Positions 7,802-63,054 of a DNA stretch of 64,000 bases are shown here, in pieces. The notes beneath the pieces are model-generated. The model ran no database searches. It was not told the origin of the DNA and was given only the letters and a program-made list of their open reading frames with translations. Position 1 is the first letter of the stretch. Every line of letters begins with the position of its first letter. Source of the stretch: a phage; sequence record PZ402305.1; one strand, 5' to 3'. The position numbers and the translations under genes are program-made.

Positions 7802-8121
7802 CACTTATTTTTGGTAAGTAGATAAATCAATTGTTCACCTGCCTCTGGTGCATATAGTGCTTTAGTATCGAAGTCAAAGAAGTGAGTGACCCCTGTTACT
7901 TTGGATGCCTGAATAGATAATCGTGCAAGCTTAAGCAGATTATCCATTTCCGCAATCTTTGCACGAAACACTGCACGTGTAGCGTCAAAAGCTGCATGTG
8001 GCATGTATTTACGATTTAGACTACTACGTTTAAATTTACGATAATCTGCAATGATCCTGTTACGTTCTTTGTTCAAGTGCTTTACCAGTGCAGTATATAC
8101 GTGTGGTTCTTTGTTAGCCAT
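7798..8121 (-). CDS. hypothetical basic protein (107 aa)
   Basis: Track ORF 7798..8154; start moved to ATG at 8121 just past upstream stop. Confidence 0.55.
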   Translation of the reverse strand: MANKEPHVYTALVKHLNKERNRIIADYRKFKRSSLNRKYMPHAAFDATRAVFRAKIAEMDNLLKLARLSIQASKVTGVTHFFDFDTKALYAPEAGEQLIYLLTKNKC

Positions 8122-8326
8122 TGTTAATCTCCTCTTCATATGTTGGTAGTGCATGGTATGCGATCACAGGTGCCAAGTCAAAATAAAAATGACCATTGAT
8201 AACAGCTATCGTGCCATTGCGTGTTTTGTTAACTTCACAGAATCCCTTCTTGCCGTTTGCCATGATTACAAGCCACTCTCCGATAGGAACATCCTCGGTA
8301 CCAGATACTTTAATCCATCCACTCAC
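8114..8326 (-). CDS. hypothetical protein (70 aa)
   Basis: Track ORF. Confidence 0.6.
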   Translation of the reverse strand: MSGWIKVSGTEDVPIGEWLVIMANGKKGFCEVNKTRNGTIAVINGHFYFDLAPVIAYHALPTYEEEINNG

Positions 8327-8583
8327 TTTACTTCCCCTTTGTAATCGGACACTACACCAGGTCTTACTTTTGCCTTAAGATGTTTCAACTCTGCCATAGG
8401 AGTTGCCACTTGTATAAGGTTAATAATTTCAACCTCGTAGATAGTATACTCATAACCCGCATACTTCCCGATGGAATGCAGGTATTTGATAGCATGTTCA
8501 GGTGAATCTGCTTCAACATACCCCAAATCTTTTGTAGTGCGGCCTTCACAGTCGCCTTCTGTAGTTACGTGATAAAGTGTCAT
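8323..8583 (-). CDS. hypothetical protein (86 aa)
   Basis: Track ORF. Confidence 0.6.
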   Translation of the reverse strand: MTLYHVTTEGDCEGRTTKDLGYVEADSPEHAIKYLHSIGKYAGYEYTIYEVEIINLIQVATPMAELKHLKAKVRPGVVSDYKGEVK

Positions 8584-8729
8584 AAAACCTCCTCATAGTA
8601 AGGTAAAGCCTTGATCAGTTGTTCTGAAGTGCCATTTTGCACCCACGTAACACCCTTGTCAAGAGAAACATACCCTTTCTTATTGATAAATTTACGGAGA
8701 CAACCAGTGAACTTGTTTTTGTAGATCAT
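8580..8729 (-). CDS. small hypothetical protein (49 aa)
   Basis: Not in track; exactly bridges neighbours with ATGA overlaps at both ends. Confidence 0.45.
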   Translation of the reverse strand: MIYKNKFTGCLRKFINKKGYVSLDKGVTWVQNGTSEQLIKALPYYEEVL

Positions 8730-9169
8730 TTCTTCTTTCCTTTCTTTAATTTGTTGTGACCTTTACCCTTATAAAGCTTGTGATTACGAGCAGACGGGTT
8801 ATTTAGGTTCTCCAGTCGGCTAACAGGTGTATTCCAAAGGTTTCCTGCTACAAAAGATGCTGCCACAAGTTCTTCCAGGTATACAAAATCCAAAGCAGGT
8901 ATCTTTGTTTCCCTCATCTCGCGTTCTACATTAGACAACACGCCTTCTTCCTTACTGTCTTCTTTTTCAATTACAGACCAACCCTCTTCCTGCCAAGCTT
9001 CCCCTCTGAACCAAGTTTCCATGTTATAACCTTGTTCGTCGAGAATAACACCATCTCGCATCTCAAACCATTCGCCACCACAAAAATGGCGGTGCTCAAC
9101 ACGTCTACCTTCCTTCATTGCTTCTTTAGCTTCGGGCCAAGTCAGTTTGATGTTTTGGATGTTTTGCAT
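8726..9169 (-). CDS. hypothetical protein with DUF2829-like N-terminal region and lysine-rich tail
   Basis: First gene of minus operon; N-terminus W.EA..A...G..V resembles DUF2829 as recalled (weak); C-terminal KGKGHNKLKKGKKK. Confidence 0.6.
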   Translation of the reverse strand: MQNIQNIKLTWPEAKEAMKEGRRVEHRHFCGGEWFEMRDGVILDEQGYNMETWFRGEAWQEEGWSVIEKEDSKEEGVLSNVEREMRETKIPALDFVYLEELVAASFVAGNLWNTPVSRLENLNNPSARNHKLYKGKGHNKLKKGKKK

Positions 9170-18345: not shown

Positions 18346-18441
18346 ATGATTAATAAAGAAAATAGCTTGACGGTTGGAACGATTAACGCTATCATTTTCG
18401 CCGTTCCATTTTGGGTTGTATTAGCGGCTATTATTTTCTAA
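18346..18441 (+). CDS. small membrane peptide (31 aa)
   Basis: Not in track; only ORF behind this promoter; hydrophobic; approximate. Confidence 0.35.
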   Translation: MINKENSLTVGTINAIIFAVPFWVVLAAIIF

Positions 18442-18451
18442 AAAAATATTC

Positions 18452-18511
18452 TTGACAACGTTTTTTAATCTGATAAGATGTATCACATAGGGCGGCGGAA
18501 TACTTCCCCGC
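18452..18511 (+). promoter_or_regulatory. Early-type promoter + 5' hairpin module
   Basis: TTGACA ... TAAGAT; hairpin GGCGGCGGAATACTTCCCCGCC. Confidence 0.55.
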
Positions 18512-18533
18512 CAAAACAAAAAAGGGTAACACA

Positions 18534-18896
18534 ATGAGCAAGCAAATCAATACTATCATGTTTAATCTGGTATCTTTCCGCGATGATATGAAAAATTTAC
18601 CACGTGAAACGGTTGATATTCATGTTTCAGCTTATCGCGCCCTTATTGATATGTTACCGCTAAAACGTGATCAACATGCCGCTAATATGATGCTTAATGC
18701 TATGCTTAAAAAGATGATTCAAACGGATCTTACTCTGGCGTATGAGTATCAAGGGCGCTTATATGCTACTTACAACAAAGCGGTACCTGGTCTGGGAAGT
18801 ACCGAAGAGTTGCACGGCTTAAACCTGGATCAAAACACTTGGGATAGTATGCGCCGCGTTATGGTATGGGCCGAAAGCGGTAAAATTTACGAATAA
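18534..18896 (+). CDS. small hypothetical protein (120 aa)
   Basis: Track ORF. Confidence 0.6.
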   Translation: MSKQINTIMFNLVSFRDDMKNLPRETVDIHVSAYRALIDMLPLKRDQHAANMMLNAMLKKMIQTDLTLAYEYQGRLYATYNKAVPGLGSTEELHGLNLDQNTWDSMRRVMVWAESGKIYE

Positions 18897-18902
18897 AAAC
18901 GG

Positions 18903-18958
18903 TTGACACTGTTTAAAATTCTGGTATAGTTTATCACGTAGGGCGGCAATGGTGCCGC
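18903..18958 (+). promoter_or_regulatory. Early-type promoter + 5' hairpin module
   Basis: TTGACA ... TATAGT; CACGTAGGGCGGCAATGGTGCCGCC. Confidence 0.55.
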
Positions 18959-18979
18959 CAATAATAAAAGGTTAACATC

Positions 18980-19159
18980 ATGGCTATCATTGCAAAAACT
19001 GAGATTATAGGTTTAGATTCGATCCTCCTGGCTTATGAGGAAACTTTAAAAATGTATGTAGTGACCTATGGTGATTATGTGCGTGAATACGAATACATTG
19101 ATCTTGCTTTCGAATGTTACATTCGCCAGGTCAATAAAGCCTATAACGATTATCGTTAA
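18980..19159 (+). CDS. small hypothetical protein (59 aa)
   Basis: Not in track; sole ORF behind promoter; approximate. Confidence 0.45.
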   Translation: MAIIAKTEIIGLDSILLAYEETLKMYVVTYGDYVREYEYIDLAFECYIRQVNKAYNDYR

Positions 19160-19178
19160 AAGTTTTAGTCTTATACTA

Positions 19179-19236
19179 TTGACAATGAGTGATAGTATAA
19201 GCATAATAACTTTTATCGGGAATACTTCCCACTAAC
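19179..19236 (+). promoter_or_regulatory. Early-type promoter + 5' hairpin module
   Basis: TTGACA-N17-CATAAT; hairpin GGGAATACTTCCC. Confidence 0.5.
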
Positions 19237-19256
19237 CAAAAAGAGAGAGTGACACC

Positions 19257-19622
19257 ATGGCTATTAATATCAATGTTTCCGTTTATGCTACCCTGGCTGA
19301 CACGGCTAAAATTGAATTATCCAGCATTGAGGCGGTGCATATTAGCGCCCGTCGCTGGTTTCAACAGTCCTACGGTAACACATATTTTTCTTTAATAGTT
19401 GACGTTGAGATCGGCGGTAAACTGATCGAGGTGGTTAACGTTCCGTTTCAATATGGCTATGGTGATCATTTTGATACCGTCGCCCTGGAAGAATTTAGCA
19501 AGGTTATCAACCTTGAGGGCAAGGAATTTTCACGCGGCGCGTATCTTTCCCGTTTTTGCCGTGACAATGGGATCACTGTATACAGTCATGCAAGCGATGT
19601 AAAACGTAAAAAAGATTTATAA
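19257..19622 (+). CDS. small hypothetical protein (121 aa)
   Basis: Track ORF. Confidence 0.6.
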   Translation: MAININVSVYATLADTAKIELSSIEAVHISARRWFQQSYGNTYFSLIVDVEIGGKLIEVVNVPFQYGYGDHFDTVALEEFSKVINLEGKEFSRGAYLSRFCRDNGITVYSHASDVKRKKDL

Positions 19623-19627
19623 AAGTA

Positions 19628-19690
19628 TTGACAGCACGAATAAAAAGAGTAAACTGTATTACATAGAGAGCGGGAACACTTCCCGCCTCA
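19628..19690 (+). promoter_or_regulatory. Early-type promoter + 5' hairpin module
   Basis: TTGACA-N16-TAAACT; hairpin GCGGGAACACTTCCCGCC. Confidence 0.55.
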
Positions 19691-19710
19691 CTGAAAAAGA
19701 GAGAAAAATC

Positions 19711-19950
19711 ATGGCTAAATCTAAAATGTACAACGGTCACAAAAACAAAACTCATTGGAATGTAAGCCTTTGGATTAATAACGATGAATCATTATATCGG
19801 TTGGCGAAAGAATTTATCGCCGCTAATACTAATCGTAATGATGCTGCGCGGGATATGATGCTTTTTCTGGAACAAACTGGACAAGATAAAACGCCAGACG
19901 GTTTCAAATATAGCACTACTGCGATCCGCGCCGCGATGGTTGGAATGTAA
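19711..19950 (+). CDS. small hypothetical protein (79 aa)
   Basis: Track ORF. Confidence 0.6.
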   Translation: MAKSKMYNGHKNKTHWNVSLWINNDESLYRLAKEFIAANTNRNDAARDMMLFLEQTGQDKTPDGFKYSTTAIRAAMVGM

Positions 19951-19959
19951 TAAAAACAG

Positions 19960-20017
19960 TTGACAACGTTTAAAATTAGTGTAAGATGTATCACATAGGG
20001 CGGGAAGTGGTTTCCCG
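19960..20017 (+). promoter_or_regulatory. Early-type promoter + 5' hairpin module
   Basis: TTGACA ... TAAGAT; hairpin GGGCGGGAAGTGGTTTCCCGCC. Confidence 0.55.
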
Positions 20018-20041
20018 CCAACAACAGAGAGATTAAAGATT

Positions 20042-20269
20042 ATGGCTATCAATATTGTTCGCGTATCCGGCACCGTTGGCACTTCCCAGGTTATTGCAGT
20101 TGTAACAAACAAAAAGATTAATGATGTATGTGAGATCTTGAATAAGTGGGCTATTGCTAATTTTGGGGAATATGCAAGCGTCGAGTACATCGAATCCTAC
20201 CAGGTGCCAACCATCAGCCTAACCGATCTCAACGTTGATCGCCTGTTATGCCTGGATGAATTAATCTGA
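20042..20269 (+). CDS. small hypothetical protein (75 aa)
   Basis: Track ORF. Confidence 0.6.
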   Translation: MAINIVRVSGTVGTSQVIAVVTNKKINDVCEILNKWAIANFGEYASVEYIESYQVPTISLTDLNVDRLLCLDELI

Positions 20270-20278
20270 AAAAGATTG

Positions 20279-20335
20279 TTGACACGGGAAAGAAAAAGAG
20301 TAAACTATATTACGTAGGGCGGCAATGGTGCCGCT
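20279..20335 (+). promoter_or_regulatory. Early-type promoter + 5' hairpin module
   Basis: TTGACA-N16-TAAACT; ACGTAGGGCGGCAATGGTGCCGC. Confidence 0.55.
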
Positions 20336-20359
20336 CACAACAGAAGAGAGATTATCACG

Positions 20360-20572
20360 ATGGCTAATATCCGCACACTGTTAAAAAATGCAAAACAAGT
20401 TTTATTTTCTGATCACAATCATTTTAATAAAGATATTACAGGCGTGAAGAATATCAAAGATGTAAAAAGTGTTATGGGTATATATTGCAATGTTAAACGT
20501 GTTGGAACGTTCGGTGACAAGGTATTGTATCAATCAGGTGATTACAATTTTACTTTGACGATTATTTCATAA
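20360..20572 (+). CDS. small hypothetical protein (70 aa)
   Basis: Track ORF. Confidence 0.6.
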   Translation: MANIRTLLKNAKQVLFSDHNHFNKDITGVKNIKDVKSVMGIYCNVKRVGTFGDKVLYQSGDYNFTLTIIS

Positions 20573-20577
20573 AACGC

Positions 20578-20639
20578 TTGCAATACTGCAAAAATAAAGT
20601 AAACTGTATTACATCAAGGCGGGGAATGGTCCACCGCCT
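20578..20639 (+). promoter_or_regulatory. Early-type promoter + 5' hairpin module
   Basis: TTGCAA ... TAAACT; hairpin GGCGGGGAATGGTCCACCGCC. Confidence 0.5.
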
Positions 20640-20662
20640 AACAAAGAGAAGAGGAAAACATC

Positions 20663-20830
20663 ATGATTACTTTTACTACCCGTGAAGCCGCTCGCAACGT
20701 TGCACGTAAAGTTAACGCCGCCAACCTGGGTGCTACGCTTAAAGCCCCTGTAAAAGATGAATCAGGCAAATGGATCTTCCCTGGTCTGCGTCATGCTGAC
20801 AAGTTAGGTACTTTAAGCCTTAAAAAATAA
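20663..20830 (+). CDS. small hypothetical protein (55 aa)
   Basis: Not in track; approximate. Confidence 0.45.
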   Translation: MITFTTREAARNVARKVNAANLGATLKAPVKDESGKWIFPGLRHADKLGTLSLKK

Positions 20831-20833
20831 TCG

Positions 20834-20880
20834 TTGACTTTTCGTTATAGCGCCTTATAATGGGCGCTATAGAGAAGAGA
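20834..20880 (+). promoter_or_regulatory. Promoter with -10 embedded in a palindrome
   Basis: TTGACT-N16-TATAAT inside inverted repeat ATAGCGCC/GGCGCTAT. Confidence 0.5.
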
Positions 20881-20908
20881 AACCAATCACCAGAAAGAGA
20901 GAAAGAAA

Positions 20909-21127
20909 ATGGCAATCCGTAAAATTAAAGTTGTTTGCATTGAATCAACTGGTGGCGCGTTTGTAGTTGGTCAGAAGTATAATGCGGTTTTAATGGGCGT
21001 GGATTGGAAGGTTAAAGGTCTTGACGGTTACGAATACGGCACTACTCGCGGCTTGCGTGGTCGAATCGGATACGTGAGCTTTGACAACAAAGAAAAATTT
21101 GTTTTCGATACTGTTATGAGTAAATAG
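20909..21127 (+). CDS. small hypothetical protein (72 aa)
   Basis: Track ORF. Confidence 0.6.
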   Translation: MAIRKIKVVCIESTGGAFVVGQKYNAVLMGVDWKVKGLDGYEYGTTRGLRGRIGYVSFDNKEKFVFDTVMSK

Positions 21128-21200
21128 CACGAATTGCTAAAAACTAATCTGCGAATTGCTGTAATATCAACTAATCGAAACACATAAAGAGAAAAACATC

Positions 21201-21422
21201 ATGATCACTTTCGCTATTGTCACCGTTGTCGCTGGTCAAGTTTACGTAAATGAGACATTTACTACAGAAGACAAAGCAGCAGGAGATATAACCGCCGTTT
21301 ACAACGAGTGCAAGGCAGTAGAAAGGATGTTAGCGCCTTGTATGCTAATGAGTGAACGCCAGGACGGGATAACAGTGTTTAGCAACATTGAAACAGGGTA
21401 CCAAATGGTAGTAACAAAATAA
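21201..21422 (+). CDS. small hypothetical protein (73 aa)
   Basis: Track ORF. Confidence 0.6.
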   Translation: MITFAIVTVVAGQVYVNETFTTEDKAAGDITAVYNECKAVERMLAPCMLMSERQDGITVFSNIETGYQMVVTK

Positions 21423-21426
21423 AACT

Positions 21427-21485
21427 TGACACAGATTTAATTTTCAGTAAACTGTTACACATAGGGCGGGAATAGTTCCCGCTAA
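21427..21485 (+). promoter_or_regulatory. Early-type promoter + 5' hairpin module
   Basis: TTGACA ... TAAACT; hairpin GCGGGAATAGTTCCCGC. Confidence 0.55.
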
Positions 21486-21500
21486 AAAGAGAGAAAGACC

Positions 21501-21854
21501 ATGAAAGCACAAAATGCAATTAAAGAGTACATCCTTGCCGCTATCGATTTTAATGATTATGGTATTACAACCGAAAAAGAGAAGATCGCGGAATTGATGC
21601 GCCGTTTTAATTCCGAGTACTGGTACCCTGATAATCAATCACGTTTTAATTATAGTATTGTTAAAGCACTTGCATCATGGTTACAAGGTTTGCCATCAGA
21701 CATTAATATCGCTTTCGAATATTGGGAAATTGATCGTTTGTTAACATCCTGGGGATACATTAAAGAGAATAGCAGCGATGATAAAATCCAACGAGAAAGG
21801 GAAAATTATTGGCTTTATATTGCAGGCGTGATCCTTGCTTGCTCTTATGAATGA
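21501..21854 (+). CDS. small hypothetical protein (117 aa)
   Basis: Track ORF. Confidence 0.6.
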   Translation: MKAQNAIKEYILAAIDFNDYGITTEKEKIAELMRRFNSEYWYPDNQSRFNYSIVKALASWLQGLPSDINIAFEYWEIDRLLTSWGYIKENSSDDKIQRERENYWLYIAGVILACSYE

Positions 21855-21860
21855 TAAACC

Positions 21861-21918
21861 TTGACAATTTTACAAAACAGCTTAAATTAATAATATAGCG
21901 GCAATGGTGCCGCTCATA
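21861..21918 (+). promoter_or_regulatory. Early-type promoter + 5' hairpin module
   Basis: TTGACA ... TAATAT; hairpin GCGGCAATGGTGCCGC. Confidence 0.55.
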
Positions 21919-21933
21919 TAAAGAGGAAACAAA

Positions 21934-22080
21934 ATGAATACATCTAATCGCGCAGAAAAAATTCAATCTCCCAAGATCCGCAAGGCCTGGAACGAGGAAG
22001 TGATCCGCAAAGGCGACAAGCGTAATAAAACAAAGCGCGGGAAGAGTGACAAATATAATTGGATGGATTTAGAGGATTAA
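21934..22080 (+). CDS. small basic protein (48 aa)
   Basis: Not in track; Lys/Arg-rich; followed by terminator; approximate. Confidence 0.45.
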   Translation: MNTSNRAEKIQSPKIRKAWNEEVIRKGDKRNKTKRGKSDKYNWMDLED

Positions 22081-22084
22081 CATA

Positions 22085-22115
22085 ACAAGGGCGCACCAAG
22101 CGCCCTTTCTTTTTA
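22085..22115 (+). terminator. Rho-independent terminator
   Basis: AAGGGCGCACCAAGCGCCCTTTCTTTTT; same hairpin recurs at 27172. Confidence 0.6.
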
Positions 22116-36768: not shown

Positions 36769-36986
36769 TCATGTGGATTGTGCGTCTTAAGTATGATGGC
36801 CCTAATCCTTGGGTGAGAACAGTTTGCGGATGTGATACTAAAGAGTCAGCAGATAAAGCTGGAAGAATGATAAGTGCCTTTTATAATAGTAAACCTCTTT
36901 GTTTAGAAATGTCTGGTGTGGTTTGTATGAGCATGTTCGAATACTACTCTTATGAGATCAAAGAACACCAAGGGGAATGGAAATAA
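36765..36986 (+). CDS. hypothetical protein (73 aa)
   Basis: Track ORF. Confidence 0.6.
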   Translation: MIMWIVRLKYDGPNPWVRTVCGCDTKESADKAGRMISAFYNSKPLCLEMSGVVCMSMFEYYSYEIKEHQGEWK

Positions 36987-36990
36987 ATAG

Positions 36991-37020
36991 TTGACAGAAG
37001 GATCTGTCTTTGTCATAATC
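36991..37020 (+). promoter_or_regulatory. sigma70-like promoter
   Basis: TTGACA-N17-CATAAT. Confidence 0.5.
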
Positions 37021-37048
37021 ATCTCATCGAAACAAAGAGGAGAAAATC

Positions 37049-37462
37049 ATGAAAAAGTTTATTTGCACCCGTTCCACTAACAGTGATATCCTTGTAGGTA
37101 AGGTTATCAAAGGAGAACTCTTCCATGCAAACGGTAAGAAATATATTTTGCTGAAAGATTCTTTCAACGGGGAATATCCGCGCTGCACTTTCTTCAATTA
37201 CAACACTCCATTTGCTTTAGAAGGAGATGCTTGGGACTGGGCTGAACTCAATCCTTGTTGTGAGGAAGAAGAATCTATGTTCTTGGGTTTAAACGTTTAC
37301 CGTGTAGATTACACCATGTGCGGAGCGGAACATTCTGTTCGCGTAGAAGCCGAATCCAAACTACAAGCACCTTTCAAGGCGGGATTGACTTTGGGTCATT
37401 GTTTGGCAAACATTGAAGATGTTGTGATCCAAAGGGTTGTTTTAGAGAAAGAGGCTATTTGA
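37049..37462 (+). CDS. hypothetical protein (137 aa)
   Basis: Track ORF. Confidence 0.6.
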   Translation: MKKFICTRSTNSDILVGKVIKGELFHANGKKYILLKDSFNGEYPRCTFFNYNTPFALEGDAWDWAELNPCCEEEESMFLGLNVYRVDYTMCGAEHSVRVEAESKLQAPFKAGLTLGHCLANIEDVVIQRVVLEKEAI

Positions 37463-37514
37463 GAGAAGACGGCACAATATTTAAATATAAAGATTAACCA
37501 CAAAGGAGATAGAT

Positions 37515-55987: not shown

Positions 55988-56680
55988 TTAAATAGCGGTT
56001 CCTTCGAAATCCGCCACATTTACGAGATTAATATTTTCAGATTTAGAAGTCAAGTTGTTTTCTGCAACAGATTTTTCTTCAGTATCCGCCTCGTTACCTG
56101 CCACGTTACGAGGTTCTTCTTCACCGTAGGGATTACCGAATTTCAAAAGATTGATCAATTCTTCTTTGGAGAAGTTTTCTAAATCATCGTCTGTTAATTC
56201 AATAATCTCGTCTTGTTCTTCAATAAATGTTTCACCACCAGAAAAAGCATCTCGCTTTTTAGCTACTTCCATAGCCTGTTCTGGTGTTGCCCCTGCATCA
56301 AGAGCAGCTAAAGCAAAGTCTGACCCACTCCCTACTGCATAATATTCTTCATCAATCGGATATGCACGTGTTGGGTTGTTACCCTCGTGCAGGAAAATAC
56401 GTCCGTCTGGATGAACAACAAGTGCAATAAACTCTTCATCTTCTTTGTCTGGATCAGAGTGAATCATCAAACCAGGGACAGCATCACGTGCTGCTTCGCA
56501 CTGTAGATTTTGTTCAAACCATTGAAAGAAAGAAAGCACGGAGGTCAGACGACCAGCACCACCTACAAGGTAATCTCCAATTTTTCGGACCTTTTTGAAA
56601 TTAATAGAATCTACACGTCCACCAAAAGTTACCTTACCGTCACTCAAAATCTTATTTTTGGTTGCAATAATTGTCGTCAC
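55988..56680 (-). CDS. HslV-like Ntn-hydrolase peptidase with acidic C-terminal extension
   Basis: N-terminal MTTIIATK (Thr nucleophile at +2 as in HslV MTTIVSV), GGR, YAVGSGSDFALAA (HslV GSGG box). Confidence 0.7.
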   Translation of the reverse strand: MTTIIATKNKILSDGKVTFGGRVDSINFKKVRKIGDYLVGGAGRLTSVLSFFQWFEQNLQCEAARDAVPGLMIHSDPDKEDEEFIALVVHPDGRIFLHEGNNPTRAYPIDEEYYAVGSGSDFALAALDAGATPEQAMEVAKKRDAFSGGETFIEEQDEIIELTDDDLENFSKEELINLLKFGNPYGEEEPRNVAGNEADTEEKSVAENNLTSKSENINLVNVADFEGTAI

Positions 56681-57215: not shown

Positions 57216-57974
57216 TTAAATAAACACTTCAGTAATCAGTTTAGACAAACGTCCACGTTTATTATCGTCCGTTGTCAGTTCAACGTATCCAATAAAATCT
57301 ACAATTGGCTCACGAACACCTTCTTCATTTTCTGGATATAAAAGTTCCAAAATTTGATGCAGACCATTGCTACGTTTTTTAATTGCATATGTCTGGCGAA
57401 CATCGCCTAATACAATAACATGCGTATTAATACCTGCACGTTCAATAAGAAGTTTAAGTGTTTCTGTTGACATAAGTTGTGCTTCGTCAATAATGACGAT
57501 TGTATTATCCAGGGTGGCCCCCAACAAATAGTTAGGAATATTCAATTCGATCTTACCTGATCCAATATCGTTTTCCAATTTGTTGGCTGTCATGAATTGC
57601 TGGAAAATACGTTTTGTAGATTCATAGTGTGCTGCTAGTTTATCTGTTTTATCTCCAGACAAGAAACCAATCTGGTCATCTCCGACTTCAGTAGGGTTCT
57701 TGATAAAAAGTAGTTTACGGAAGTCTCCTGAACGAAGCATCTGCAAAGCTTTCCATAAAGCAACAGAGGTTTTACCAGTCCCTGCCGGAGCATTTACAAC
57801 AGTCAGATCATTCCAAATCATGCTTTGAACAATCTTATTTTGGTCCCCTTCAGGCATAAATTCATCTAAACGGTAATCGTCATTACCTACCGCTTTTGCT
57901 GCATAACGGCTTTCAATCTTTGCTGAATTAGCCAGTTTCTGCCGTTGTGTTTTAGCTGCGGTTTTATTTCCCAT
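57216..57974 (-). CDS. phoH: PhoH-like ATPase
   Basis: Walker A NAPAGTGKTSVA, Walker B IVIIDEAQ; start moved to ATG after AAGGAG, downstream of hairpin. Confidence 0.8.
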   Translation of the reverse strand: MGNKTAAKTQRQKLANSAKIESRYAAKAVGNDDYRLDEFMPEGDQNKIVQSMIWNDLTVVNAPAGTGKTSVALWKALQMLRSGDFRKLLFIKNPTEVGDDQIGFLSGDKTDKLAAHYESTKRIFQQFMTANKLENDIGSGKIELNIPNYLLGATLDNTIVIIDEAQLMSTETLKLLIERAGINTHVIVLGDVRQTYAIKKRSNGLHQILELLYPENEEGVREPIVDFIGYVELTTDDNKRGRLSKLITEVFI

Positions 57975-57984
57975 AGTAGCACTC

Positions 57985-58010
57985 CTTTTAGAAGGGGCCG
58001 AAGCCCCTTT
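57985..58010. other. GC hairpin between lysozyme and phoH
   Basis: GAAGGGGCCGAAGCCCCTT; U-tract only on plus-strand side. Confidence 0.4.
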
Positions 58011-58011
58011 A

Positions 58012-58512
58012 TTAGTTGTAAGCATCTAAAGTTCCAGAAGTCAGAACTTTAATTACTCGTTCAGCACGGTTTGGCGTCTGGCTATACCATCGGCTTTTAC
58101 GCATGTTTTTACCTGCTTGAGTATAATATGCATTGCTGATTAAAGTCAAGCTATTTTGAAACCCTTCAGCACCTTTTAATCCCAACTGGAAAACCATGTT
58201 GATTATTCCCAATTTACGAGTATCACTAACCTTATCATAGATTGGTGATAAGATAGCACTGTTTTTTATGTCTCTCTTCACTTTTGCAACATCGTCAGCA
58301 AAGATTTGACGGGCTTCTTTTTCTGTGATAACTCCATTAGTCTTACGACCAAGAAGATTATCTAAGATTTGAATAGCCTTTGCTTTATCTTTTATTTTAG
58401 TCAGAAGGTGTCCTATGCCGACTGTCCAATAACCAAGATGGTCTTGATAAACAGTAAGCTTCAGTCCTTCATCGACTCGTAGCATATCGAACTCATCTAC
58501 TACTTTAGCCAT
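58012..58512 (-). CDS. e: T4-type lysozyme (endolysin)
   Basis: MLRVDEGLKLTVYQDHLGYWTVGIGHLLTK and SRWYSQTPNRAERVIKVLTSGTLDAY align with T4 lysozyme incl. catalytic Glu/Asp/Thr. Confidence 0.9.
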   Translation of the reverse strand: MAKVVDEFDMLRVDEGLKLTVYQDHLGYWTVGIGHLLTKIKDKAKAIQILDNLLGRKTNGVITEKEARQIFADDVAKVKRDIKNSAILSPIYDKVSDTRKLGIINMVFQLGLKGAEGFQNSLTLISNAYYTQAGKNMRKSRWYSQTPNRAERVIKVLTSGTLDAYN

Positions 58513-58519
58513 TTACTTC

Positions 58520-58669
58520 CTATTCGTCGTCTCCTACTCCGTGATCCAACTCGTTAAACAACAGATGTTCTGGAGAAGTTTCACGTTTTGGTTTCGTTTT
58601 CTTTATGTTGGACTTCAGCTCATTTGCCAAAGCACGAGAAAAGATCTTACGTTTCTGTTTACTTTTCAT
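58520..58669 (-). CDS. small basic protein (49 aa)
   Basis: Not in track; fills gap between glutaredoxin and lysozyme; approximate. Confidence 0.35.
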   Translation of the reverse strand: MKSKQKRKIFSRALANELKSNIKKTKPKRETSPEHLLFNELDHGVGDDE

Positions 58670-58674
58670 AATTG

Positions 58675-58935
58675 TTACTCCGCAATTTGAGCCATGAGAT
58701 CACGCAGTTCGGTAAAACCGCCTACGTATGTTACCTCCCCGTTCACTTCGGACAGAATTTGTGGAAATGTGCGTGGAGGAACTCCGGTAAGATCAACAAC
58801 TGTTTTAGTCATTGATTCTAAATCATAGTCTTGATCAAGACTTAAATATTCAAACTGTTTATTGCGCATGGTTAATAGTTGTTTTGACATTTCACAAAAT
58901 TGACAGTTAGGTTTACCAAAAATTACAAATTCCAT
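58675..58935 (-). CDS. Glutaredoxin/thioredoxin-like protein (NrdC-like)
   Basis: N-terminal FGKPNCQFCEMSK (CxxC active site), C-terminal GGFTELRDL; near nrdB. Confidence 0.7.
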   Translation of the reverse strand: MEFVIFGKPNCQFCEMSKQLLTMRNKQFEYLSLDQDYDLESMTKTVVDLTGVPPRTFPQILSEVNGEVTYVGGFTELRDLMAQIAE

Positions 58936-59777
58936 TACCTCTCCTTATTAAGTAATACTGCTAAAGACTGTTCAATACCTTTATTTAAATCTGATTTTGT
59001 AAGATAGTGACTGGTTACTAGTTGTGACTTCACCGGACGTGCTGCTGGAGCATTATAGGTTGAAGCTGATACCGCCGATATCTTAACAGGTTCTGGCATC
59101 TGTGTCAAGATCTTTTCCGCAAACTCCGCCCAAGAAATAAGATGGCTTCCTGCAAAATGGTAAGTCTTAACAGACCTTGACCAACCTGTTTTTAATACTT
59201 CAAAAATAGCTTCTGCTAAATCTGGAGCATATGTTGGACAAGAGAACTGATCAGCAACAATAATAAAATCACGTTGTCCATCATTATAGCGAGACAACAT
59301 GGTTTTTAGAAAGTTATTTCCAAATTCGCTATATACCGAGGCTGTTCGAATAATATATGCATTTGGGTTAACTCCTCGCACCATTTTTTCACCAAGTTCT
59401 TTCGTATACCCATAATTGTTTATTGGGTTAGGTGTAGTATCTTCAAAAATAGGATGAGAATAATTAAAAATATAGTCTGTAGAAATATGCACAAAATCAA
59501 TTTTAAGTTTGCTGCACACTGCCGCAATATTTGCAGGTCCATACGCATTAACAGCCAAAGCAGTAGCAAAATCATGTTCTGCTTTATCTACAGCCGTATA
59601 AGCGGCGCAATTAATAACACCATCTACATAATCTTCAATAATAGCGTTTCGCACAGCTTCAAAATTTGTAATATCTACACGTTCTTTAGGATAAATTAAA
59701 GATACATTTGAAGGAGCCACTTTACGTAAAGCTTGTCCCAGTTGTCCATTACCGCCCAATACCAGATATGTTAGCAT
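58935..59777 (-). CDS. rmlD: dTDP-4-dehydrorhamnose reductase
   Basis: N-terminal LVLGGNGQLG Rossmann motif; last gene of rml cluster. Confidence 0.8.
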   Translation of the reverse strand: MLTYLVLGGNGQLGQALRKVAPSNVSLIYPKERVDITNFEAVRNAIIEDYVDGVINCAAYTAVDKAEHDFATALAVNAYGPANIAAVCSKLKIDFVHISTDYIFNYSHPIFEDTTPNPINNYGYTKELGEKMVRGVNPNAYIIRTASVYSEFGNNFLKTMLSRYNDGQRDFIIVADQFSCPTYAPDLAEAIFEVLKTGWSRSVKTYHFAGSHLISWAEFAEKILTQMPEPVKISAVSASTYNAPAARPVKSQLVTSHYLTKSDLNKGIEQSLAVLLNKER

Positions 59778-60337
59778 ACACCCTCGCTACGTAACTGTTG
59801 AAAAGATTTAGCCATTGCATCTTTTGTTGATAGAATAGGTTTAAAACCTTCGTCAAAAATCATATCGAAGCCCCAATCGATCCCTATATCAGGATCATCC
59901 CAACGTAAACTTTGTTCACTAGAAGGGTCGTATGGAGTTGTGCATTTGTATTCAAAGATAGCATCCATACTCAAAACTATAAAACCATGAGCCAAACCAG
60001 GCGGAAGCCAAAACTGCGTATGGTGTCGTGCACGAAGAACAACACCGTCCCAAGCACCGTAAGTTGGACTATCTTTACGTAAATCTACAGCGAAATCCAA
60101 TACTTCCCCACTTACACAACGAACTAGCTTACCTTGCGGGTTATTTGTTTGAAAGTGCATTCCTCGCAAAACACCGAAGTTTGATTTAGACATGTTATCT
60201 TGAACGAAAGTTTGTCTACCAATAATATCTTCGTATTTTTGTTCATTATATGTTTCTAGAAAGAAACCACGATCATCTTTATAAACGTCTGGTTTGATAA
60301 TTACCGCACCTTCAATTTTTGTTTTTTCTACTTTCAT
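59771..60337 (-). CDS. rmlC: dTDP-4-dehydrorhamnose 3,5-epimerase
   Basis: RGMHFQ and cupin-type motifs; start moved to ATG overlapping rmlA stop. Confidence 0.8.
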
Positions 60338-61212
60338 TTTCTCTCCGCTAATTTGAGTAGGTATTGCCCGTACTCTGTTTTCTTCAGTGAGTTTCCATGA
60401 TACACCAAAGTCTCTAAAGAAATCCACCCTTTTTTGAAAGCAATTTCTTCCAGGCACGCAATCTTCAATCCTTGACAGTTCTCAATAGTCTGCACGAATT
60501 GACCAGCTTCCATCAGACTGGCGTGTGTTCCTGTGTCAAGCCAAGTAAATCCTCGTCCGAGAACTTCCACTTGTAACTTCCTGTCTTCTAGGTAGCTGCG
60601 ATTGATATCAGTGATCTCCAGTTCTCCACGCGCGGAAGGGGTTACTTCTAATGCACGTTGAATAACAGAGTTATCATAGAAATACAAACCTGTGACAGCA
60701 TAATCTGATTTAGGATTTTCAGGTTTCTCTTCAATAGAAATAGCTTGACGATTACTCCCAAATTCAACCACACCGAATCGTTCAGGATCTTTCACCAAAT
60801 ACCCGAAAATACAAGCTCCGCCCCAAACATCTACCATCTCACTGGCGTTAATCAGTAGTTTACCAAAGCTTTGTCCGAAGAATAGGTTGTCACCTAAAAT
60901 AAGAGCAACAGAGTCTTCTCCGATAAAATCTTTACCTATGATGAAAGCTTCCGCAAGACCTCGTGGCTCGGATTGGATTGCGTAAGTGAGTTTTATCCCA
61001 AACATAGATCCATCTCCGAGAAGATACTCAAAGTCTTCCTGATCGCCTGGTGTGGTGATTATTAAAATATCCTTAATGTCAGCCAACATCAATACCGATA
61101 AAGGGTAGTAGATCATGGGTTTGTCATACACAGGGAGTAATTGCTTGCTCACACTGCGTGTTACTGGATGAAGGCGGGTTCCACTTCCTCCCGCCAAAAT
61201 AATACCTTTCAT
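60334..61212 (-). CDS. rmlA: Glucose-1-phosphate thymidylyltransferase
   Basis: [18 protein letters not shown] ... [16 protein letters not shown]. Confidence 0.85.
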
Positions 61213-61220
61213 AACCCTCC

Positions 61221-62213
61221 TTAAATTTTCTCACTCCACCATTGAGGGTTGTTTAAGTACCATTCAATCGTTGAGTAGAGATCTTGTTCAAATGTAGAGT
61301 TTGCACTCCAACCCAGTTCAGACTCTATTTTAGAAGGATTGATTTCATAACGCAAGTCATGTCCTTTACGATCTTCAACAAAAGTTATCAAGTTGGAAGA
61401 AGGGTAGGTTCCTGCCTCTGGATGTACAGCATCCATGTAGTCACAAACCATATAGATGATCTCCATATTGGTTTTGGGATTACGTGTTCCAACATTATAC
61501 GTTTGACCTGGTTCTCCACCTGTTGCCACTTGAAGAATAGCTCGCGCATGATCCTCAACAAAAAGCCAGTCTCGCACCTGATCGCCTTTACCATACACCG
61601 GAATCTCTTTATTCGTCAAGATACTTGTGATGATTTTTGGGATCAGCTTTTCTGGATGTTGATAAGGCCCAAAGTTATTGGAGCAGTTGGTTATCACAAC
61701 AGGCAAATCGTAGGTACGGTGCCAAGCTTTCACAAGATGGTCAGATGCTGCCTTAGACGCGCTGTACGGGCTTGAAGGGGCATAAGCTGTCTCTTCAGTA
61801 AAGGGAACGCCAGAGTCTGCCATATCGCCGTACACTTCGTCTGTGGAGACGTGTACGAACATCTTCAGTTTATTTTTTGGGAGGAGCCTTGCAGCTTCCA
61901 ATAAATTGTATGTACCAATAATATTGGAGTCGATGAAAACTCGTGGATTCTTGATAGAATTATCCACATGACTTTCTGCCGCTAAGTGAATGATGAAGTC
62001 AGGATTGCACTCTACTACTAAACTTTTGACCTGGGTTTCGTTTGCCAAATCTGTTATGCTTAGTTTAACGTGAGTGATATCGCCTACATTCTCAATGTCT
62101 GCTGCATAGCCCATCTTATCAACGACAAAAACTTCGTTATTGGGATCTTGACAAAGAGAGCGCACCACGGCACTCCCAATAAAACCAAGACCACCTGTTA
62201 CCAGATAGCGCAT
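61221..62213 (-). CDS. rmlB: dTDP-glucose 4,6-dehydratase
   Basis: [35 protein letters not shown] short-chain dehydratase motifs. Confidence 0.85.
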
Positions 62214-62222
62214 CAGTTCTCC

Positions 62223-62549
62223 TTACCAAACATGTTGAGAAATAATAGTTTCCGTTTTAATGTTATATTTTTCAAGTAGCTTTGCATAGGCTTCTTTTGC
62301 ATTCTCATTCAATTGCTCAAGATCTACAGCTATGCTTCCTTCTCCGCCTTCTAAATCAAGGCCATATATGCAATAAGACTCATCCGCATCGTAGAAAGGA
62401 GAGATGCGGCTTAAGTCAAGACCTTCTTGTAAGAACCAGTTAAAATCTCCGTCAAATTCTTCTTCAATTCTAGGATCTTCTCCTACAGCCTCTTCCCACT
62501 TATTAAAAGGTGCACCCTGTAACATACGCCATTCGATATCAATACCCAT
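62223..62549 (-). CDS. hypothetical acidic protein (108 aa)
   Basis: Track ORF. Confidence 0.6.
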   Translation of the reverse strand: MGIDIEWRMLQGAPFNKWEEAVGEDPRIEEEFDGDFNWFLQEGLDLSRISPFYDADESYCIYGLDLEGGEGSIAVDLEQLNENAKEAYAKLLEKYNIKTETIISQHVW

Positions 62550-62703
62550 TTTTCATCTCCTCCTCTTCTTGAGCAGCTTTAATAATTGCTTCATAAATAT
62601 CGTAAGCAATGCCTCCACAACATCTAGCTTCGAAAGCTATTGCTTCTGCAATGTGATCTGTTAATTCTCGTGGAATGCGAACATACTCTTTTTCACTCTC
62701 CAT
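62539..62703 (-). CDS. small hypothetical protein (54 aa)
   Basis: Not in track; overlaps both neighbours by 11 nt; approximate. Confidence 0.4.
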   Translation of the reverse strand: MESEKEYVRIPRELTDHIAEAIAFEARCCGGIAYDIYEAIIKAAQEEEEMKNGY

Positions 62704-62845
62704 CTTCTACCTCCAACCCTTCTTTTTCAAAGATTACTACTCGTCCTTCACCATGACAATTCAGGCAAGGAAATGTTACCATAATTTCCACTTCCATCTG
62801 TCCAGTCCCACCGCACACAGGACAAAAAATAAGTTTTTCAGCCAT
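62693..62845 (-). CDS. small zinc-ribbon protein (50 aa)
   Basis: Not in track; CPVCGG ... CLNCHG; TAATG overlap with upstream gene. Confidence 0.4.
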   Translation of the reverse strand: MAEKLIFCPVCGGTGQMEVEIMVTFPCLNCHGEGRVVIFEKEGLEVEDGE

Positions 62846-63054
62846 TATTCCTCCTTAATTATTTCAAACTTGGCAACACCATTTACAATAATATGACCAC
62901 AAGACATAACTCCTAGCCAAGGATCGCCGTTTTTCTTCGGGCGTTTACCGAATACATCACAAAAACCATTCTTCATTTCGGAGGCTTCATAAGAAGCCTC
63001 TTTGTCAAAAACGTCTTTGAATGTGTCGATTATACCAACACATCTCAAAATCAT
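62845..63054 (-). CDS. hypothetical protein (69 aa)
   Basis: Track ORF. Confidence 0.55.
   Translation of the reverse strand: MILRCVGIIDTFKDVFDKEASYEASEMKNGFCDVFGKRPKKNGDPWLGVMSCGHIIVNGVAKFEIIKEE

Follow-up and report, generated by a model that had tools for sequence, protein, structure and literature searches.

A complete dTDP-L-rhamnose gene cluster in a phAPEC8-type phage and its possible link to a portable glycosyltransferase module

An intact rml cluster in a Phapecoctavirus genome

Four genes for the synthesis of deoxythymidine diphosphate (dTDP)-L-rhamnose lie side by side in sequence record PZ402305.1, of which we analyzed a stretch of 64,000 nucleotides (here called the window). The region is 99.7% identical in nucleotide sequence to Escherichia phage SKA64 and 99.3% identical to phAPEC8, and the whole window is collinear with positions 127086 to 147737 and then 1 to 42190 of the latter. 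Given this near identity to SKA64 and phAPEC8, the source phage is a Phapecoctavirus (Stephanstirmvirinae), a phAPEC8-type virulent myovirus of Escherichia coli.

The four genes are minus-strand open reading frames (ORFs) that occupy positions 58935 to 62213 exactly. Read along that strand, they are rmlB, encoding dTDP-glucose 4,6-dehydratase (61221-62213; 330 amino acids); rmlA, encoding glucose-1-phosphate thymidylyltransferase (60334-61212; 292 amino acids); rmlC, encoding dTDP-4-dehydrorhamnose 3,5-epimerase (59771-60337; 188 amino acids); and rmlD, encoding dTDP-4-dehydrorhamnose reductase (58935-59777; 280 amino acids). A longer rmlC ORF with a GTG start, reaching position 60457, was rejected as an artifact of ORF listing. 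Scored against the NCBIfam curated equivalog cut-offs, RmlB reaches 430 bits with TIGR01181 (cut-off, 365), RmlA 464 bits with TIGR01207 (cut-off, 361), RmlC 225 bits with TIGR01221 (cut-off, 156), and RmlD a marginal 238 bits with TIGR01214 (cut-off, 224). The Pfam assignments concur for all four, RmlD matching PF04321 with an E value of 2e-73. An earlier, sequence-only reading of the window had claimed a complete rmlB-rmlA-rmlC-rmlD pathway in a virulent phage, and with all four proteins above their equivalog cut-offs, this claim is borne out.

The possibility, raised in the same reading, that the genes have lost their catalytic residues did not hold, since full alignments to solved enzymes show these residues intact in all four proteins. 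RmlB has Salmonella RmlB (PDB 1G1A; 371 bits) as its best solved relative and keeps the GxxGxxG motif, the TDE triad, and the YxxxK motif (YSASK). RmlA is closest to 4HO0 (420 bits), followed by E. coli RffH (1MC3; 398 bits); the motifs GGSGTRL, SKQLLP, LGDN, EEKP, and WLDTGT are kept relative to 4HO0, as are conserved Lys and Asp positions. Aligned with Salmonella RmlC (1DZR), its best solved relative, the phage RmlC retains the catalytic His, Lys, Tyr, and Asp, with the segments RGMHFQ, GKLVRC, EYKCT, and TKDA. The closest solved relatives of RmlD come from Firmicutes (3SC6, 154 bits; 1VL0, 152 bits), the Salmonella enzyme 1KBZ scoring 105 bits, and alignment to 3SC6 and 1VL0 shows that GxxGxxG, STDY, and YxxxK (YGYTK) are kept. 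The stereochemistry at C4 (L-rhamno versus L-talo) is not legible from the RmlD sequence, which passed TIGR01214 narrowly. The observation of four rml genes is correct, far beyond chance; with the caveat of the C4 stereochemistry set by RmlD, the assignment of their functions is nearly certain, as certain as homology allows.

The rmlA stop codon and the rmlC start codon overlap in the sequence ATGA (60334-60337). The ATGA overlap reported previously for the cluster is thus real at this junction and does not extend to the others: rmlB and rmlA are separated by a gap of 8 nucleotides, and rmlC and rmlD overlap by 7 nucleotides (ATGCTAA). At the downstream end, the rmlD stop codon and the ATG of a glutaredoxin gene overlap by 1 nucleotide (TAATG). 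A scan for sigma-70 promoters and terminators yielded none that convincingly interrupts the cluster; the hits inside it all fall within coding sequence, their number is near the shuffle expectation, and the first good minus-strand terminator is located at 55982-55967. The cluster is an intact polycistronic rmlB-rmlA-rmlC-rmlD unit, predicted to turn glucose-1-phosphate and dTTP into dTDP-L-rhamnose.

Much of this was already known. The same four gene names are given in many matching GenBank and RefSeq records. Olsen et al. 2020 (PMC7552041) described the complete pathway, called its place in a DNA-metabolism region "peculiar," and proposed the rhamnosylation of hydroxymethylated nucleotides. 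Mathieu et al. 2020 listed RmlA and RmlB among the auxiliary metabolic genes of virulent coliphages, and Maffei et al. 2021 mentioned a "putative dTDP glycosylation machinery" of phi92-like phages. The rml cluster and the idea of DNA glycosylation were therefore already published, in annotation and discussion, between 2012 and 2020; in the literature that we searched, no experimental test of the role of the cluster has been reported. New here are the split into a core rmlC-rmlD half and an accessory rmlB-rmlA half, the statistics on the host complement, and the link to a portable glycosyltransferase module.

rmlC-rmlD is the core and rmlB-rmlA the accessory half of the cluster

In phi92 (Justusliebigvirus), the gene order is nrdA, nrdB, small ORFs, rmlB-rmlA-rmlC-rmlD, glutaredoxin, lysozyme, and PhoH. 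The Rml proteins of phi92 are 54 to 72% identical to those of the window, and the products of the flanking core genes are 56 to 92% identical. Given the same place and order in both genera, the rml module probably predates the Phapecoctavirus/Justusliebigvirus split. With RmlC as the query, tblastn found the protein in every Stephanstirmvirinae lineage that the search reached, at about 99% identity in Phapecoctavirus, about 65% in Wecvirus, 62% in Justusliebigvirus, and about 60% in the Klebsiella phages FKP3 and phi1_175008. Codon differences between close relatives are mostly silent: rmlB differs from its phAPEC8 counterpart by 11 synonymous and 3 nonsynonymous codons, rmlA by 6 and 0, and rmlC from that of phage ESCO37 by 15 and 1. 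Judging from these counts, the rml genes evolve under purifying selection.

The two halves of the cluster are not equally conserved. A megablast search with the cluster alone as the query returned 71 phage records from Phapecoctavirus and Wecvirus (GenBank/RefSeq duplicates counted). All 71 carry rmlD and rmlC, and at least 80% of the cluster is covered in 46 of them; rmlB-rmlA is missing from about a third of the Phapecoctavirus records. Among the 25 records below 80%, phiWec181 falls there solely because the ends of its record split the cluster, and the others listed (n = 19) all match query positions 1 to 1412 (in one case, 1 to 1419), which correspond to rmlD plus rmlC. In ESCO37, rmlB and rmlA were lost together, and rmlC directly abuts a 108-amino-acid ORF. 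In the window, this ORF of unassigned function (62223-62549, minus strand) lies directly upstream of rmlB, is 92% identical to its phi92 counterpart, and marks the upstream edge of the rmlB-rmlA presence/absence polymorphism. The ESCO37 breakpoints lie within a repeated ribosome-binding motif, GGAGA, which is carried by both junctions; rmlC thus retains a ribosome-binding site in this phage. ESCO37 was isolated as a viable phage, and recombination with ESCO5 in the laboratory restored rmlA and rmlB (PMC10269720).

Exchange of the accessory half is also apparent outside the laboratory. In a Wecvirus-like IMG/VR contig (locus L094, 4125-7397), RmlB and RmlA share 93% and 97% of their residues with the window proteins, whereas RmlC and RmlD share only 66% and 65%. 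These values indicate that the cluster is a mosaic in which the rmlB-rmlA segment recombines between lineages separately from rmlC-rmlD and, as far as the sequences tell, was recently exchanged. Overall, rmlC-rmlD is the core half of the cluster, and rmlB-rmlA is its accessory half.

The gene content of the host may explain this asymmetry. In complete E. coli genomes, rffG and rffH, the paralogs of rmlB and rmlA from the pathway for enterobacterial common antigen (ECA), are present at full length in 5306 of 5426 (98%), and rfbC is detectable in 2199 of 5426 (about 41%), a count that is a lower bound given that very divergent alleles may escape detection. We infer that nearly every E. coli host can supply dTDP-4-keto-6-deoxyglucose and that most hosts cannot complete the pathway. 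If so, a phage that needs dTDP-L-rhamnose would have to keep rmlCD and could lose rmlBA. The invariance of rmlCD, the dispensability of rmlBA, and the host gene frequencies agree in this respect, and it seems that dTDP-L-rhamnose itself is the point of the module.

The phage has its own cluster of annotated glycosyltransferase genes

The lack of a visible glycosyltransferase gene noted in the sequence-only reading is true of the window, where we found no relatives of the annotated glycosyltransferases of the phage, and yet it is misleading. A search of the flanking genome, which that reading had suggested, led to four tandem genes annotated as glycosyltransferases in phAPEC8, gp071 to gp074 (109618-112765; locus L003, 9618-12765), which lie outside the window, about 14 kb before its position 1. 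This cluster is present at full length in 71 of 71 records, a record count and organism breakdown equal to those of the rml hits; likewise, gp072 and RmlC have nearly equal organism breakdowns across phage records, mycobacteriophages apart. Two IMG/VR contigs also carry both the rml and the glycosyltransferase modules. In three IMG/VR contigs related to Stephanstirmvirinae (L015, L016, and L017), a gp071-like gene is directly followed by a gp073-like gene, and the gp072 counterpart is missing; thus, this enzyme is not universally retained.

According to an AlphaFold model (predicted local distance difference test score [pLDDT] of 88), gp072 (227 amino acids) adopts a glycosyltransferase A (GT-A) fold, with an invariant FIFDDD motif. 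Its Foldseek hits (STIV A197, vaccinia H3, TarP, LH3, and beta4GalT7) are generic GT-A proteins. The paralogs gp073 and gp074 have a glycosyltransferase B (GT-B), GT4-like fold (model pLDDT of 92), and the gp073 hits are again generic for GT4: sucrose-phosphate synthase (SPS), BshA, MshA, PglA, TarM, and SdgB. No known rhamnosyltransferase stood out among the Foldseek hits of the gp072 and gp073 models, and the glycosyltransferases retrieved from the BFVD viral library are all unnamed or generic. The maximum 19-residue Kyte-Doolittle hydropathy of gp071 to gp074 is at most 1.65, with no clear transmembrane segment. By tblastn, gp072 matches 356 Mycobacterium phage records at about 26% identity; outside Stephanstirmvirinae, nearly all of the phage records that match gp072 are mycobacteriophages.

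Relatives of gp071, gp072, and gp073 form a portable module in unrelated phages

The gp073 family is large, with 285 proteins in one search and 553 confirmed IMG/VR stretches in another. Most loci with a gp073 relative of at least 36% identity have a gp072-like gene, a gp071-like gene, or both adjoining it, in varying order. Relatives of gp071, gp072, and gp073 thus make up a portable three-gene module, found in many unrelated viral contigs and prophages.

The positions of the module in these genomes follow a pattern. It follows the genes for terminase, portal, and capsid/protease in five HK97-like contigs (L033, L038, L042, L044, and L046). In L044, where the full order is confirmed by Pfam, the genes for the terminase large subunit, portal, S78 prohead protease, and major capsid protein are followed by the GT-A, GT-B, and gp071-like genes, and 3' of the module come genes for a gp6-like connector, a gp10-like protein, a tail completion protein, and the tail tube, so that the module has the major capsid gene immediately on one side and the head-tail connector gene on the other. 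Among Pseudomonas prophages (P. silvicola, App30, and dw_358), the module immediately precedes the terminase genes. A Serratia prophage and a metagenomic lambdoid phage have it between the lysis cassette and terminase and, in the latter, downstream of antiterminator Q. At these positions, the module genes are late genes, silent in lysogens. Their late or structural position is thus far easier to reconcile with modification of the particle than with lysogenic conversion or modification of DNA.

Two loci from unrelated lineages, L009 (8354-9376) and L022 (approximately 7949-9013), contain a gene 29 to 32% identical to RmlB inside the module. The L009 copy scores 180 bits with TIGR01181 against the cut-off of 365 and keeps TDE and YxxxK; from its sequence, it is a putative divergent dTDP-glucose 4,6-dehydratase. 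These genes provide a second tie of the module to 6-deoxyhexose nucleotide metabolism. Outside phages, a lone gp073-family glycosyltransferase gene (411 amino acids) of Burkholderia dolosa, with no phage genes nearby, lies downstream of genes for an 853-amino-acid invasin/intimin-like protein and a 571-amino-acid unknown protein (L007, 3025-8440). Together with similar loci in Trinickia (L179 and L180), it may represent a system for adhesin glycosylation.

Genes around the rml cluster

The rml genes are flanked by the neighbors that had been noted before, namely, a glutaredoxin gene, a small zinc-ribbon gene, and nrdB, all of which ORF and family matches bear out. The glutaredoxin gene (58675-58935, minus strand; PF00462, E value of 2e-9) probably serves ribonucleotide reductase. 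The zinc-finger ORF (62693-62845, minus strand) encodes 50 amino acids with two CxxCxGxG motifs of the DnaJ type and belongs to a run of small ORFs between nrdB and rmlB; in the corresponding run of phi92, one ORF (gp070) is annotated as a putative DnaJ chaperone. The nrdB gene, from position 63054, is truncated by the end of the window. Downstream on the same strand, at 55988-56680, 57216-58025, and 58012-58512, lie genes for a T4-like lysozyme, a PhoH-like ATPase, and an HslV-like peptidase, all on the minus strand and without a terminator-like site between them and the rml genes, an unusual mix with nucleotide and sugar genes. The genome encodes the endolysin, gp067, at another site, and the lysozyme is distinct from it.

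The arbitrary ends of the phAPEC8 record fall inside the window, phAPEC8 position 147737 corresponding to window position 22088. Gaps or 87% identity relative to phAPEC8 are found in the early-gene region (window positions approximately 18400-22100 and 36800-37500), and positions 37502 to 64000 form a single block of 99% identity. Records matching window positions 58600 to 62600 include phages named after Campylobacter, Pseudomonas, Acinetobacter, Klebsiella, Shigella, and "Dompiswa." Among the matches listed, the records so labeled range from 86.6% identity (Pseudomonas phage PsgM04F) to about 98%, with Campylobacter phage B15 at 98.5% and Acinetobacter phage ABPW7 at 98.2%; the host labels of at least some of them look doubtful.

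What the rhamnose may be used for

We propose that the rml genes feed a glycosyltransferase module that decorates virion proteins. Phage-encoded RmlC and RmlD, with or without RmlB and RmlA, would secure dTDP-L-rhamnose in any host; the gp071-gp074 cluster would use it as the donor, which is the least certain step; and the most likely acceptor would be a virion protein (capsid, decoration, or tail) rather than DNA, because the related module is embedded in head-morphogenesis and late operons elsewhere. There is precedent for such a system: according to two reports (PMC12363180 and PMC11256854) that describe Freeman 2023, the capsid and tail-tube proteins of mycobacteriophages are glycosylated by glycosyltransferases that the phages themselves encode. 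We give the whole chain a probability of roughly 0.45. That Stephanstirmvirinae virions in fact carry rhamnose glycans, built by the portable module of gp071-like, GT-A, and GT-B proteins, with the donor guaranteed by rmlCD with or without rmlBA, is a tentative prediction, which we regard as possible rather than probable. Three uses of the sugar had been suggested in the sequence-only reading, namely, on phage DNA, on virion proteins, and on host surface polysaccharide; the second has gained from the context of the module in other phages, and the first has lost ground.

Several observations weigh against this proposal. Early or middle expression is suggested for the rml genes by their place in a nucleotide-metabolism operon, and gp071 to gp074 lie between the endolysin and primase/helicase genes, among replication rather than structural genes. 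Since all of the genomes concerned belong to one clade, the co-occurrence of the rml and glycosyltransferase genes in Stephanstirmvirinae is essentially one evolutionary event and counts once. Most module-bearing phages have no rml gene within 10 kb. The status of gp071 (187 amino acids, with an invariant D-x-D motif) as a glycosyltransferase comes from PHROGs alone: a Pfam scan of 19 family members gave no hit, the family profile gave no significant hit among PDB sequences, and hhalign assigned a probability of 0.4% to a relationship with the gp072 family. Neither modeled fold (gp072 or gp073) reveals the donor sugar. The similarity of gp072 to the N-terminal GT-A domain of Che8 gp108 is remote (23% identity over 147 amino acids; E value of 8e-4), and there was no match to Che8 gp109 or gp110. 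The product itself could be epimeric at C4, that is, 6-deoxy-L-talose instead of L-rhamnose, as RmlD clears its cut-off only narrowly. Finally, the predicted link of the rml genes to these glycosyltransferases, or to any acceptor, is drawn from sequence and gene context.

The rival that survives best places the sugar on the host envelope, where remodeled lipopolysaccharide (LPS) core, O-antigen, ECA, or receptor glycans would block superinfection or the adsorption of progeny to debris. Enzymes of the GT4 and GT-A types are characteristic of polysaccharide assembly, and the loci of distant gp073 relatives in bacteria (25 to 30% identity) have rml-like genes close by. The receptors reported for these phages are the LPS outer core and glycans of the ECA type (PMC8594841), and similar cyanophage genes have been read as cell-surface modification genes (PMC12801897). 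Yet the machinery expected for such a role is not in evidence: the phAPEC8 annotation lists no membrane component of the Wzx, Wzy, or GtrABC type, and gp071 to gp074 are without transmembrane-like segments. In temperate phages, moreover, the operons that hold the module are late or structural ones and stay silent in lysogens; lysogenic conversion does not come into play there, and a late change in a cell near lysis would bring little obvious benefit. We consider envelope remodeling unlikely, although it deserves more attention than the explanations that follow.

Transfer of rhamnose to a DNA base, possibly a hydroxymethylated one, would protect the phage genome from host nucleases in the manner of the glucosyl-hydroxymethylcytosine of T4. 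The genomic context speaks for it. The rml genes are found within a nucleotide-metabolism operon (nrdAB, thyX, and glutaredoxin), gp071 to gp074 adjoin the primase/helicase and DNA polymerase genes, and one 184-kb phage contig has a GT-A/GT-B pair beside topoisomerase genes. Two weak matches of gp072 point the same way, one to the TET-associated glycosyltransferase family PF20691 (TAGT), which is below threshold (19.5 bits versus 27.5, over 37 residues), and one to the PHROG beta-glucosyl-hydroxymethylcytosine-alpha-glucosyltransferase (phrog_842); we set both aside as evidence of DNA glycosylation, as they span only the nucleotide-binding and DxD stretch. Against this stands the behavior of phi92-like phages, which share these rml and glycosyltransferase genes: in contrast to T-even phages, they are reported to be "exceptionally susceptible" to restriction-modification systems of types I, II, and III (PMC8594841).

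The palindrome content of the genome itself tells against modified DNA as well. Among six-base palindromes whose expected count is 4 or more, 15 of 61 are absent from phAPEC8, versus 8 of 3962 nonpalindromic hexamers. PstI sites number 0 where 29 are expected, BamHI sites 0 versus 24, and NcoI sites 0 versus 17, and the tetramers GTAC, GGCC, and CCGG stand at 0.35 to 0.46 of expectation. The window alone gives the same picture (10 of 48 palindromes absent versus 6 of 3708 nonpalindromic hexamers), with GGATCC at 0 versus 11 and CTGCAG and CGATCG each at 0 versus 10. EcoRI sites (29 in phAPEC8), EcoRV sites (52 in phAPEC8), and GATC sites are not avoided. Strong palindrome avoidance is a signature of DNA exposed to restriction; because it evolves in DNA that restriction enzymes can see, it speaks against blanket glycosylation.

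The enzymes that would prepare and glycosylate the base were not found either. The sole thymidylate synthase homolog matches PF02511 (ThyX) and not the ThyA/hydroxymethylase family, and the annotation of phAPEC8, in which only the thymidylate synthase gene was scanned directly, includes neither a hydroxymethylase nor a TET/JBP enzyme. The T4 alpha- and beta-glucosyltransferases are absent from the top 50 Foldseek hits of both the gp072 and gp073 models, and in HK97-like phages the module, flanked by capsid and connector genes, is not placed in the manner of genes for DNA modification. Blanket DNA glycosylation is thus disfavored, and sparse or site-specific modification could still be reconciled with these data. 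DNA glycosylation had been the leading idea of the sequence-only reading; the restriction sensitivity of relatives, palindrome avoidance, the ThyX-type enzyme, and the lack of likeness to T4 glucosyltransferases together make it improbable.

A metabolic or regulatory role without any glycosyl transfer appears similarly improbable. In this reading, RmlC and RmlD would divert dTDP-4-keto-6-deoxyglucose from ECA synthesis, and accumulating dTDP-rhamnose would feedback-inhibit the host thymidylyltransferases, halting the synthesis of envelope glycans or sparing thymidine nucleotides. Feedback inhibition of RmlA by dTDP-rhamnose is established. The rml genes are cotranscribed with genes for deoxynucleoside triphosphate (dNTP) synthesis, and according to the gene map of the K-12 wec locus, the invariant rmlCD half is the branch that competes with WecE for the ECA precursor. 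Two reports (PMC8870461 and PMC12773781) also mention altered dNTP pools and surface glycans upon perturbation of RmlA. However, the shared ancestral state includes phage RmlA and RmlB, which would consume dTTP and add flux, and the dTDP is recycled after glycosyl transfer, so that little thymidine would be saved. A purely metabolic role also leaves the conserved four-gene glycosyltransferase cluster unexplained.

That the genes are a neutral leftover, host-derived metabolic genes without a current function, is hardly credible: the loss of rmlB-rmlA is compatible with viability and K-12, the strain on which many isolates were propagated, carries an rfbBDAC set itself, but all Stephanstirmvirinae lineages hit have rmlC, with protein identities as low as 60%, and the gene order is conserved where examined; differences are mostly synonymous, catalytic residues are intact, and the genes are translationally coupled; and they are not recent host captures, with many substitutions in RmlA relative to 4HO0 and an RmlD closest to Firmicutes.

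Comparison with known systems

If virion proteins are in fact decorated with rhamnose, this would mark the first description of virion glycosylation in phages that infect Gram-negative bacteria, by a system that supplies its own nucleotide sugar; it would also make virion glycosylation a portable and widespread phage trait. Phapecoctavirus and Justusliebigvirus phages have very broad host ranges and have been proposed repeatedly for therapy and biocontrol. Glycosylated particles might differ in antibody recognition, clearance, and stability, as reported for mycobacteriophages. Natural rml variants with two genes (ESCO37 and nepoznato) and with four (phAPEC8 and the window) already exist.

Relative to the rml clusters of phAPEC8 (2012) and phi92, the locus described here is the same in position, gene order, and neighbors, with no difference in the locus itself. 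It shares with bacterial rfb/rml operons, such as the rmlBDAC operons of E. coli and Salmonella, the same four enzyme families and their catalytic residues. It differs from them in its order (B-A-C-D versus B-D-A-C), in having no adjacent rhamnosyltransferase, flippase, or polymerase gene, in its place within a phage nucleotide-metabolism operon, and in the clear divergence of its proteins from the solved bacterial enzymes.

As with the DNA glucosylation of T4, which relies on a dCMP hydroxymethylase and alpha- and beta-glucosyltransferases, the sugar-transfer genes of this virulent myovirus lie among DNA-metabolism genes. Here, in contrast, no hydroxymethylase was found in the scan and annotation described above, the glycosyltransferase folds differ, relatives are sensitive to restriction, and palindromes are avoided. 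Unlike GtrABC-type seroconversion systems, phAPEC8 has no membrane-embedded flippase and no membrane-embedded glycosyltransferase annotated.

The mycobacteriophage systems (Che8 gp108-gp110, Corndog, and Myrna) resemble the one proposed here in that soluble glycosyltransferases are encoded by the phage, theirs acting on capsid and tail-tube proteins. The homology between them is only remote, and the present phage, which infects a Gram-negative host and whose virion glycans are a prediction, also makes its own sugar nucleotide. A parallel for this latter feature exists among viruses of eukaryotes. The uridine diphosphate (UDP)-L-rhamnose pathway of Mimivirus feeds the glycosylation of virion fibrils, so that the virus encodes both nucleotide-rhamnose synthesis and glycosyltransferases for its own particle. 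Its pathway differs from that of the phage in its UDP- rather than dTDP-linked intermediates, its enzymes, and its eukaryotic host. A putative dTDP-D-glucose 4,6-dehydratase in the PDB, 6VLO, which we take to be the Mimivirus enzyme, is only a distant match to the phage RmlB.

Partial rml sets occur in other phages, and RmlC is common in viral contigs. Our scan of viral contigs for RmlC gave 306 confirmed matches, and among the best 80 of the 306 loci (each with flanks of 10 kb), 52 contain the RmlB-RmlC pair. Environmental phages and cyanophages with such partial sets, including S-B05 and S-B43, share RmlC with the phage studied here. Among the same best 80 loci, complete four-gene sets occur only in Stephanstirmvirinae-like contigs and one other locus.

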